DNA from: Escherichia coli
GTDB lineage: Bacteria; Pseudomonadota; Gammaproteobacteria; Enterobacterales; Enterobacteriaceae
Direction: 5' to 3' (one strand)
Assembly: GCF_044324785.1 (NCBI RefSeq)
Contig: NZ_CP172127.1
DNA: 64,000 bases
This document shows positions 26,401-29,400 of this stretch, piece by piece. Within the stretch, counting starts at the first letter, position 1. Each line of letters begins with the position of its first letter. A program made the position numbers.

Positions 26401-29400
26401 ACAAGACGGCGATTTTCGCTAAAAATGGCATTTAAATGTGATTAATGTCACATTTTTGTTTTGATGGTTTGTTGAGTCTTTGTGATCTGAATCACAAGAT
26501 ATTTTCTTACGGCGTTCACCTGATGTGATCTGCAGCATGTTATGTCTTCGTCATAAAATCGTTATGTAACTAAGCAACTCATCACCTCTAAAAATTATTC
26601 TTTGGTGTTATGGCAAGAATCGCGAACCCGGATTATTGTCAAAATATCAGCCTGACTCCCTTCTGGCTGCCAGCCAAAAAACAACACCGATAAACGTGAA
26701 TCCGAGGCAGATATGTTTCTAAACTATTTCGCGTTGGGAGTGCTGATCTTCGTCTTTCTGGTGATTTTTTATGGAATCATCGCGATACATGACATCCCTT
26801 ATCTGATTGCCAAAAAGCGCAACCATCCCCATGCCGACGCTATTCATACGGCGGGCTGGGTGAGCCTGTTTACTCTGCATGTTATCTGGCCGTTTCTGTG
26901 GATCTGGGCGACGCTCTATCAACCGGAGCGCGGCTGGGGCATGCAGTCACATGTTGCGTCGCAAGAGAAAGCGACTGACCCGGAAATCGCCGCACTTTCT
27001 GACCGAATTTCCCGGCTGGAGCATCAACTCGCCGCCGAGAAAAAGACTGACTATTCCACGTTCCCGGAGATCTAAATATGGATCTATTGATTGTTTTAAC
27101 TTACGTGGCGCTGGCGTGGGCGGTCTTTAAAATCTTCCGCATTCCGGTAAATCAGTGGACGCTGGCGACGGCGGCGCTGGGAGGCGTGTTTCTGGTGAGT
27201 GGTTTGATTTTGTTGATGAACTACAACCACCCTTACACTTTTACCGCGCAAAAGGCAGTGATAGCGATCCCCATCACGCCACAGGTGACGGGAATTGTTA
27301 CTGAAGTCACCGACAAAAATAATCAGCTTATTCAAAAGGGCGAGGTGCTTTTTAAGCTCGACCCGGTTCGTTACCAGGCGCGAGTTGACAGACTTCAGGC
27401 TGACCTGATGACGGCGATGCATAATATAAAGACGCTGCGCGCGCAGCTCACTGAAGCGCAGGCCAACACCACCCAGGTTTCAGCGGAGCGCGACCGTCTG
27501 TTTAAAAATTATCAACGTTATCTGAAAGGCAGCCAGGCGGCGGTGAATCCGTTCTCGGAACGTGACATCGACGATGCGCGGCAAAACTTCCTCGCGCAGG
27601 ACGCGCTGGTGAAAGGCTCGGTGGCGGAGCAGGCGCAGATCCAGAGCCAGCTCGACAGTATGGTTAACGGCGAGCAGTCGCAGATTGTGAGCTTAAGAGC
27701 GCAACTTACTGAAGCAAAATATAACCTTGAGCAGACTGTCATTCGCGCACCGAGCAATGGCTACGTCACTCAGGTACTGATCCGCCCAGGTACATACGCC
27801 GCTGCCTTGCCGCTGCGTCCGGTGATGGTCTTCATCCCCGAGCAAAAACGGCAAATTGTCGCCCAATTTCGGCAAAACTCGCTGTTACGTCTGAAACCCG
27901 GCGATGATGCGGAAGTGGTGTTTAACGCGCTACCTGGGCAGGTGTTCCACGGCAAACTGACCAGTATTTTACCTGTCGTACCAGGCGGTTCTTATCAGGC
28001 GCAGGGGGTATTGCAATCATTAACGGTTGTGCCCGGCACGGACGGTGTGCTGGGAACCATTGAACTGGACCCTAACGATGATATCGATGCCTTACCCGAC
28101 GGCATCTACGCCCAGGTGGCGGTTTACTCCGACCATTTCAGCCATGTTTCGGTGATGCGGAAAGTGCTGCTGAGAATGACCAGTTGGATGCATTATCTTT
28201 ATTTGGATCATTGAGGGGGGCGGGGGAGATTATGGAACTTTGCTCCCTGCAAGGACTAATTATTTTTGCATATTATTTCATCGGCTGTGATGATTTTTCG
28301 TTAATATCCATTATGTTAAGAAGTTCGGGATGAGTGTGAACTCATTGGATTTTTTATCCGTCTTGATCTGCCGAAGGATCAGACTATACATTGTCGAGAT
28401 CGCAATGATGATATGAGTTGTTCCTCTGCCACGGCTCTAATCAAAAAAGAGCAGGAGTGCTTTTCCATCTATTGCGATGATGGCTTTATTATCTGAAGGA
28501 TGACAGTCACATTTAAAAATATTTAATTTATAGATCACAATGTAGGTTCATGGAATATATGTATACAACTATTTTTCTCTTCACTTTTAATTATCGCATT
28601 CATTATAACACTAAGTTAAAAAAACTCCTGGAGAGTGAGTTATTAATATATTTTTAAATATAATTAAGTTATTATTCATCGATGCATTTTATAGAATCAT
28701 CAATGGCTACAATAGTACTATTAACTCTCCAATTTATATTTTTATTATCATTGCAAATATTAACTGAATCTATATCAATGATTTTTTTATTTTTATCTTT
28801 TATTTTATTTACAGTTTCAATGCAATCAGCGACAAGTTGGTGTGGATTTAGATTCTTCAGATATGGTCTTATGATCTTTCCCTTGCTTAATAAATAGCAT
28901 GTATAGGATTCGGAAAGTCCAGCATCTATTTTGTACATCATTATTCTAGATAAGGATGTGAGAAATGCCTTGTTATCATTAGCAGCCATATATGCCAGTC
29001 CGAGTTCAGCCTCTGCGGCTTTACATGAAAAATAGCTAAGTGAACACGCTTTTCGTCCCTCTTGGGTACTGGCTGATATTAGTGCCCATAATATTGCCTT
29101 GTCTGCCAAATCCAACTCTCTCTGAAATTGGTTTACAGTAACTGCATTCGCAGAAATAGAGAAGAAAAGCACAATTGTTAATAACCTTGTCATATTTCTA
29201 GTCCGTCACTGTTAATGTGCTATCTGGCTCTGAAAATATTAGCTCATTTAATTTTTGCATGTCATTAGATGAACCAGTTATACAACCCTCGGAACAGAAT
29301 CGAGGTCCTAAAGATGGACCAAAAGCGTTTAAACAACTATGTGTTAAAAATCCATCACGATTATACGTTTCTGTATTTGCTGACGGTACTAAACGTATAC

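Follow-up and report, generated by a model that had tools for sequence, protein, structure and literature searches.

What does a periplasmic adaptor do when no transporter is encoded beside it? Two gene pairs, yibI-yibH and yiaW-yiaV, raise this question in a 64,000-nucleotide stretch of Escherichia coli DNA (contig NZ_CP172127.1 of RefSeq assembly GCF_044324785.1; hereafter the window, meaning this stretch at its full length). Each pair encodes a small membrane protein of the DUF3302 family followed by an adaptor of the HlyD family. Tripartite envelope-spanning pumps are central to drug and metabolite efflux in Gram-negative bacteria, and, to our knowledge, all of the described types have an energised transporter beneath the adaptor tube. 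YibH and YiaV are the two remaining orphan adaptors of E. coli, and their clade is always accompanied by a two-helix protein and never by a linked transporter. The yib and yia genes, their paralogy, and their uncharacterised status are on record already; the result of value is at the level of the family, where a small membrane protein of very high conservation is the centre of a distinct adaptor module that has no linked transporter.

Two gene pairs without a linked transporter

The four genes, all called as open reading frames (ORFs) and given here with their RefSeq names, are as follows.

26713-27075, plus strand: yibI, a 120-amino-acid DUF3302 protein.
27078-28214, plus strand: yibH, a 378-amino-acid periplasmic adaptor of the EmrA/AaeA type.
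43296-43619, plus strand: yiaW, a 107-amino-acid DUF3302 paralog of yibI.
43625-44761, plus strand: yiaV, a 378-amino-acid adaptor paralog of yibH.

A first-pass annotation of the window had described two directly oriented pairs (26713-28214 and 43296-44761) as tight two-gene modules with no partner transporter nearby, and the ORF calls bear this out. All four genes are on the plus strand, only 2 nucleotides (nt) separate yibI from yibH and 5 nt separate yiaW from yiaV, and yiaW begins 16.6 kb beyond yibI. The junction sequence places a Shine-Dalgarno-like GGAG for yibH within the 3' end of yibI, and spacing of 2 to 5 nt, or overlap, fits translational coupling and a fixed stoichiometry. RefSeq labels yibI and yiaW of E. 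coli as 'DUF3302 domain-containing protein' and yibH and yiaV as 'HlyD family secretion protein'. No efflux transporter gene (RND, ABC, MFS, PET, or FUSC) adjoins either pair in the window.

Pairing and conservation across the DUF3302 family

Does this arrangement extend beyond E. coli? Our survey covered 85 DUF3302-bearing loci, with some distant representatives available only on contigs too short for neighbours. An adaptor gene lies directly downstream of the DUF3302 gene in 80 of the 85, with gaps of -4 to +23 nt in all but two, for which the ORF caller took a different start. Four of the five unpaired loci run off the contig end, and the fifth (L004) has an adjacent downstream adaptor gene that BLAST missed. 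The paired loci include those of Enterobacterales, Alcanivorax, Rhizobium, Shewanella, Ferrimonas, Aeromonas, Pseudoalteromonas, Sinorhizobium, and metagenomic contigs, and one metagenomic DUF3302 contig carries planctomycete-type neighbour genes. Across the ~80 loci no third gene, transporter, or outer-membrane factor recurs, and the neighbours vary in every distant lineage. The absence of a transporter, which the first-pass annotation had noted only locally, is a property of the whole DUF3302 family.

Conservation is distributed very unevenly over the module. When E. coli is compared with distant taxa, identity in the DUF3302 protein is 69% for the first transmembrane helix, 75% for the connecting loop, and 86% for the second transmembrane helix. 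In the adaptor it is 56 to 59% for the N-terminal transmembrane hairpin and 58% for the C-terminal helix, ~40% for the beta domains, and 22% (with 30% gaps) for the alpha-helical hairpin. Overall, the E. coli small protein is ~80% identical to its relatives in Shewanella, Rhizobium, or Alcanivorax, and the adaptor ~43%. This gradient points to a constrained core in or at the inner membrane, with DUF3302 as its most constrained component.

Some individual loci have surroundings of their own. In Sinorhizobium sp. B11 (L093:6600-10237) the pair is followed on the same strand by genes for a SulP anion transporter, ppk2, and an AI-2E family transporter, as in no other lineage. Citrobacter sp. MGH106 (L062) and Serratia grimesii (L075) carry extra, more divergent copies of the module, each beside its own LysR-family regulator, and the S. 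grimesii adaptor is 59% identical to YibH. A DUF3313 lipoprotein gene (Pfam E-value 6e-45) is directly upstream of the pair and on the same strand in S. grimesii (L075:6289-6960) and Biostraticola tofi, and on a Pantoea megaplasmid it is ~1 kb away from the pair (the latter two genes being at L071:6254-6922 and L078:9502-10176); there is none at the E. coli loci, and this lipoprotein may be an occasional third component. In Salinivibrio kushneri (L094:5001-6806) an IS4 transposase gene follows the DUF3302 gene and no adaptor is listed, in a PLSDB record with incomplete annotation; this locus may be an interrupted copy.

The DUF3302 small protein

YibI residues 3 to 78 match positions 1 to 76 of the 77-position Pfam DUF3302 model (PF11742; E-value 3.3e-41). 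The protein has two predicted transmembrane helices, a conserved connecting loop (HDIPYxIAKKRNHPHxDAIH), and a tail that varies and is predicted to contain one helix. In an AlphaFold2 model built with 85 sequences, in which the predicted local distance difference test score (pLDDT) is 93 to 97 for residues 1 to 70, a helix at residues 2 to 26 is followed by a short helix (28 to 35), the NHPH turn, a second long helix (41 to 68), a disordered linker, and a tail helix (90 to 115). The DUF3302 protein is confidently predicted on this basis to be a helical hairpin of two transmembrane helices, and the count of lysines and arginines weakly favours a cytoplasmic location for the loop.

With 777 clusters at 50% identity in a set of 1.84 billion representatives, DUF3302 is a small family, and its core is unusually conserved, with representatives 55 to 80% identical across bacterial classes. 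Nearly invariant positions include P29, A33, R36, H38, P39, A43, I44, W49, S51, L52, W59, P60, and W65, and conserved polar or protonatable residues (H26, D27, H38, D42, and H56) are located at or within the membrane helices. Searches for a solved relative gave nothing above chance, and DUF3302 resembles no known family: with the single sequence, the low E-value matches involved only the coiled-coil tail and de novo-designed proteins, and with the 85-sequence profile, the best match (E-value 0.03) was to rhodopsin helices, at chance level.

An EmrA-like adaptor with two N-terminal helices

YibH has the Pfam domains CusB_dom_1, HlyD_D23, and Biotin_lipoyl_2. Its model runs from two N-terminal hydrophobic helices through strands of the lipoyl domain, an alpha-hairpin, and strands of the beta-barrel to a 20-residue C-terminal helix, and is without a membrane-proximal domain. 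The alpha-hairpin consists of helices 97-151 and 161-218, roughly 55 residues each, and pLDDT is 80 to 95 in the periplasmic part. As in the adaptors of the HlyD family (TCDB 8.A.1), the lipoyl domain is split by the alpha-helical hairpin, a beta-barrel domain is present, and there is an N-terminal inner-membrane anchor, formed by hydrophobic segments at about residues 2-20 and 28-48 that are conserved across the clade. The second hydrophobic helix is a mark of the clade and is kept in all members examined. The co-encoded energised transporter (RND, ABC, MFS, or PET) that adaptors usually have is missing at both pairs and at the ~80 related loci.

YibH falls short of the EmrA/EmrK and MdtN subfamily models. 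It scores 113.6 bits against the NCBIfam model for EmrA/EmrK (TIGR00998; cut-off 390.8) and 110.3 against that for MdtN (NF007785; cut-off 376), with YiaV similar and likewise below both; against the generic RND_mfp model (TIGR01730; cut-off 94.9), YibH passes (99.2) and YiaV falls short (88.1). The best match of YibH in a sequence search of the PDB is EmrA (E-value 1e-11), and a Foldseek search with the YibH model also returns EmrA, in EmrAB-TolC, as the best match (E-value 3e-18; template-modelling score ~0.65, normalised to the target), with MacA second and adaptors throughout. The segment at the YibH hairpin tip aligns with the hairpin tip of AaeA, where overall identity is 24%; this likeness is suggestive only as regards tip-to-tip docking on TolC.

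Across the family, adaptor length ranges from 270 to 438 amino acids because the alpha-hairpin varies. Adaptors of 270 amino acids (L005-L007; for example, L005:1806-2618) have no alpha-hairpin, yet both N-terminal helices and the C-terminal one are retained. Without the hairpin, these short forms would be unable to reach the outer membrane.

The two pairs are old paralogs

How closely related are the two E. coli pairs? BLASTP confirms that they are paralogous, with YibI and YiaW 74% identical (E-value 8e-62) and YibH and YiaV 77% identical (E-value 0.0), and the two HlyD-like proteins do align end to end (378 versus 378 amino acids, with no gaps). The products had also been called nearly identical, which these values contradict, as does the identity of yibH and yiaV DNA (69.7%). 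Third codon positions account for 214 of the 345 differences between yibH and yiaV, nonsynonymous divergence (dN) is 0.18 for these genes and 0.06 for the DUF3302 core, synonymous divergence (dS) is saturated, and the longest exact DNA run common to both pairs is 26 nt. Near-identity is confined to the DUF3302 core (73 of 79 residues) and the last 28 adaptor residues, the C-terminal helix (27 of 28), which accounts for the initial impression; the YiaW tail differs from that of YibI and is 8 residues shorter in the alignment.

With ~70% identity in DNA, 74 and 77% in protein, and saturated synonymous sites, the two pairs are, as judged from their sequences, old paralogs kept by purifying selection rather than near-identical repeats. 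Because both types are present side by side in Citrobacter (~9 kb apart, sometimes with a third copy), the duplication predates the Escherichia/Citrobacter split. We infer that yibIH is the ancestral core copy and that yiaWV goes back to an old duplication and has been retained along with a LysR regulator of its own and an outer-membrane protein. The possibility that the pairs act as recombination-prone direct repeats bracketing an island was rejected, given the ~70% identity, the 26-nt longest run, and the syntenic core genes that lie between them.

Genomic context and distribution

The genes and regions around the two pairs are as follows.

26177-26712: intergenic region between the divergent mtlA and yibI genes, with the yibIH promoter (genomic systematic evolution of ligands by exponential enrichment, SELEX).
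28672-34172, minus strand: RHS core protein gene (1380 amino acids), a small hypothetical ORF, and an Imm57-family immunity gene, directly downstream of yibH.
39811-41106, plus strand: a Fic-domain ORF of 431 amino acids between yiaY and aldB (NCBIfam Fic adenylyltransferase, E-value 2.8e-10, far below cut-off).
42753-43295: aldB-yiaW spacer, which holds the yiaWV promoter (genomic SELEX).
44758-45732, minus strand: yiaU (LpsR), a LysR-type regulator (NCBIfam LysR families).
45856-46596, plus strand: yiaT, a MipA/OmpV-family outer-membrane protein (NCBIfam OmpV, E-value 6e-27, below cut-off), divergent from yiaU.

The gene order is mtlA (minus strand), yibI, yibH, the Imm57/hypothetical/RHS-core insertion (minus strand), yibF, selA, and selB, and then yiaY, the Fic-domain ORF, aldB, yiaW, yiaV, yiaU (minus strand), and yiaT. 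Among 5426 complete E. coli genomes, yibIH (scored at at least 80% coverage) is present in 5383 (99.2%) and is therefore core, and yiaWV is present in 3769 (69.5%) and is accessory. Synteny of mtlA-yibIH-yibF is maintained across Enterobacteriaceae, and yiaU and yiaT adjoin yiaWV in all of the yiaV-type loci examined (E. coli, Citrobacter, and Pseudocitrobacter).

The first-pass annotation had the pairs flanking the rhs/sel/fic/aldB segment and sitting at the edges of variable islands. Read as the bracketing of a variable segment, the first of these statements does not hold, as yibF, selAB, yiaY, and aldB are conserved syntenic core genes and only the RHS and Fic insertions between the pairs are variable. 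The RHS/Imm57 insertion after yibH is present in strain N3 and absent from AR_0067, where yibF directly follows yibH. Because yiaY and aldB are only ~200 bp apart in both AR_0067 and N3, the Fic ORF is a strain-variable insertion of ~1.3 kb in the core segment. The second statement is half right: the core pair yibIH does border the variable RHS/Imm57 insertion, and yiaWV lies inside a variable block and not at its edge. In N3 the whole yiaW-yiaV-yiaU-yiaT block is replaced by a type I restriction-endonuclease gene and hicAB. N3 is 100% identical to the window over mtlA-yibIH-Imm57, and the yiaWV region is best matched by other strains (99.6%); the window strain is therefore a mosaic relative to the compared genomes.

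The neighbouring RHS/Imm57 and HicAB genes prompted consideration of anti-phage defence, for which PADLOC gave no support, as none of its defence-protein models matched save for a coiled-coil-level similarity of YibH to LmuB (E-value 0.0045). A role as mobile-element cargo is similarly unsupported; DUF3302 is rare on plasmids (77 of 72,556 records), those that carry it are mostly megaplasmids or chromids, and 67 are non-mobilizable.

Several smaller features concern yiaWV directly. The convergent yiaV (plus strand) and yiaU (minus strand) coding regions share 4 nt at 44758-44761, which cover the yiaV stop codon, and a 2025 paper lists yiaU-yiaV among candidate excludons (mutually exclusive expression via overlapping transcription). 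A query that includes the aldB-yiaW spacer (42753-43295) is found at a median of 3 places per E. coli genome, versus 1 for the genes alone, and the repeated sequence is probably a repetitive extragenic palindromic (REP)-type repeat. A terminator scan flagged a 12-pair stem followed by a T-rich run at 43315-43346 (plus strand), within the first yiaW codons and thus in a region coding for a hydrophobic helix; this is most likely a by-product of codon composition.

Expression and phenotypes

A 2024 review of the y-ome still counts yibH and yibI as uncharacterized, and TCDB lists YiaV as uncharacterized under 8.A.1.1.4, in agreement with the earlier claim that the function is uncharacterised. The literature yielded no experimental molecular function for yibIH or yiaWV, and only expression changes or mild phenotypes are reported. 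Genomic SELEX identifies constitutive sigma-70 promoters for both pairs, with that of yiaWV being H-NS-associated. In the uropathogenic E. coli strain UTI89, the yibI promoter is up 5.6-fold in human urine, and a yibI deletion has a competitive index of 0.33 in urine and reduced adherence. In the course of adaptation to macrophages, yiaW acquired an IS1 insertion, and a yiaW insertion by itself was without effect in the assay used. Deletion of yiaW is reported to raise Ca2+-mediated transformation efficiency, and the yibH locus has been replaced to create an integration site in MG1655, in which loss of the locus was tolerated. YiaU (LpsR) regulates yiaT and the waa operon; we found no evidence for YiaU control of yiaWV, which is not among the targets that the YiaU paper reports. 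The constitutive promoters, the urine induction, and the competitive index indicate that yibIH and yiaWV are expressed and matter somewhat.

What might the module do?

Beyond the obligate gene pair, the EmrA-like adaptor, and the most-conserved membrane core, we infer. The reading that we tentatively prefer, at somewhat less than an even chance, is that DUF3302 and the adaptor form a dedicated, self-contained two-protein complex of the inner membrane, in which the small protein would replace the usual transporter under the adaptor tube. The adaptor would form a periplasmic tube by analogy with the EmrA hexamer, and the long-hairpin forms, such as YibH and YiaV, could use an EmrA/AaeA-like hairpin tip to dock on TolC. 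The inner-membrane base would be made of DUF3302 subunits and the adaptor transmembrane hairpins, with four helices per heteropair, and would replace the MFS, PET, ABC, or RND transporter of the classical tripartite pumps; the whole could serve as a self-contained export or relief conduit for a small substrate. The points that count in favour of a self-contained complex are the invariant pairing, the lack of a third gene, the conservation gradient, the EmrA-like adaptor, the purifying selection, and the expression. It is favoured in particular because DUF3302 is not detectably related to DUF1656, the small-protein family of the AaeXAB pump, and because a transporter gene is missing everywhere.

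In a stronger form of this proposal, DUF3302 would be a class of inner-membrane core subunit not recognised before, and a ring of these subunits, together with the adaptor hairpins, would form a pore under the EmrA-like tube. We consider this form rather unlikely, and put the same low expectation on what it would entail, namely, two-component export, either TolC-coupled or hairpin-less, that needs no MFS, ABC, RND, or PET transporter. It is compatible with the invariant pairing, with the absence of a conserved third gene, and with conservation being highest in the membrane part. Were the small protein indeed the membrane core, it would represent a novel means of assembling or supplying a TolC conduit, and four y-ome genes would gain a function.

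Several considerations weigh against a self-contained conduit. The literature holds no experiment for transport, TolC dependence, or YibI-YibH interaction, and the phenotypes reported are mild and unspecific. A two-helix protein has no known means of coupling energy to transport. When YibI and YibH were fused through a (GGGGS)6 linker and modelled in AlphaFold2 with 16 paired sequences, YibI had a pLDDT of 40 to 59 and the predicted template-modelling score was 0.44, with the adaptor periplasmic domains confident. TolC docking would not be a universal function, since the adaptors of ~270 amino acids have no alpha-hairpin. Finally, the lack of an adjoining transporter is compatible with one that is encoded elsewhere.

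This last point leads to the first alternative, which we also regard as doubtful: the pair may be the accessory subunit and adaptor of a classical tripartite pump whose transporter, an orphan PET/FUSC-like or MFS protein, is encoded elsewhere, with DUF3302 playing the role that AaeX (DUF1656) has in AaeXAB. The gene layout, a small two-helix protein and then an EmrA/AaeA-type adaptor, is that of aaeX-aaeA-aaeB, and LysR regulators stand beside several copies of the module as aaeR does beside aaeXAB. The EmrA-like adaptor fold is consistent with such a pump, and in fitness screens DUF1656 proteins show cofitness with the adaptors and FUSC proteins that they partner. However, in DUF1656 systems the FUSC gene stays within the operon, whereas a transporter is linked in none of the ~80 DUF3302 loci. 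Profile-profile comparison gives no support for membership of DUF3302 in DUF1656 (AaeX/YdhI), in that hhalign gives a probability of 0.1% (the AaeX profile was made from close relatives, and very remote homology is possible). Moreover, DUF3302 is far more conserved than its adaptor, which is unusual for a dispensable accessory subunit. If a transporter elsewhere is used after all, naming it would complete the efflux inventory of E. coli.

It is unlikely, in our estimate, that the module is not a conduit at all but a periplasmic scaffold or sensor, anchored in the inner membrane, that reuses the adaptor fold, with DUF3302 as a signalling or anchoring partner; envelope stress, membrane organisation, and tethering of peptidoglycan or the outer membrane are roles that it could have. 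Such a function would agree with the alpha-hairpin being the least conserved part and missing in some members, with the locking of yiaWV to a MipA/OmpV-family gene and a lipopolysaccharide-linked regulator, with a DUF3313 lipoprotein adjacent in three lineages, and with the envelope-flavoured phenotypes (transformation efficiency and adherence). Nonetheless, the solved relatives recovered for the adaptor fold are all pump or secretion adaptors, the long forms retain the hairpin-tip segment, and Pfam searches of YibI and YibH reveal no signalling domain.

We think it very improbable that a DUF3302 ring around the adaptor transmembrane helices passes proton-motive energy to the periplasmic domain, as GldL/GldM, PorL/PorM, or ExbB/ExbD do. 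The parallel is one of general architecture only, a small hairpin protein with an N-anchored partner that has a long periplasmic domain. The sole Foldseek matches of the YibI model are PorL/GldL chains, and H26, D27, H38, D42, and H56 are conserved at or in the membrane helices; yet these matches are not significant (best E-value 4.5, probability 0.04 to 0.2), profile and PDB searches give no sequence similarity to motor stators, and the mid-membrane region has no conserved acidic residue. We find it hardly credible that the pairs are relics without function, left by pumps whose transporter gene was lost. Deletion of yibH is tolerated in MG1655, 30% of E. coli genomes are without yiaWV, and a yiaW insertion by itself had no effect in one assay; this idea is nevertheless strongly disfavoured by conservation: both copies are under strong purifying selection despite saturated synonymous sites, the DUF3302 core is well conserved across bacterial classes, yibIH is nearly universal in E. 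coli, and the two-gene unit is intact in distant phyla.

Comparison with known systems

EmrA, the adaptor of the MFS pump EmrAB-TolC (PDB 8zal/8zar; PMC13139468), is the best match of YibH in both sequence and fold. The two have the same domain order, with a membrane anchor, beta-barrel, lipoyl domain, alpha-hairpin, and C-terminal helix and no membrane-proximal domain, at only ~17 to 20% identity. EmrA has a cytoplasmic N-terminal tail, one N-terminal transmembrane helix, and a C-terminal helix packed on the base of the hairpin (PMC13139468); in YibH and YiaV, two hydrophobic helices stand at the very N-terminus. The gene that accompanies that of EmrA encodes EmrB, an MFS transporter, whereas YibH and YiaV are preceded by the two-helix DUF3302 protein and have no linked transporter. 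MdtN (of MdtNOP), one of the top NCBIfam matches of YibH (E-value ~1e-32), is similarly linked to its transporter, as is MacA (of MacAB-TolC); YibH is below the family cut-offs for both. MacA also has the membrane-proximal domain that the YibH model is without.

The closest described layout is that of aaeX-aaeA-aaeB, which consists of a small two-helix protein, an EmrA/AaeA-type adaptor, and a PET/FUSC transporter, with a LysR regulator nearby and YdhIJK as a paralog. In K-12 aaeB follows aaeA, whereas no DUF3302 operon, in the window or at the related loci, contains a FUSC/PET gene, and AaeA has one transmembrane helix where YibH has two N-terminal hydrophobic helices. Small inner-membrane accessory proteins are also associated with other tripartite pumps; those of the AcrZ type are single helices that bind the RND transporter and not the adaptor, and are poorly conserved. 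DUF3302 resembles AcrZ in being a small inner-membrane protein, and differs from it in being a two-helix hairpin that is better conserved than the adaptor with which it is paired.

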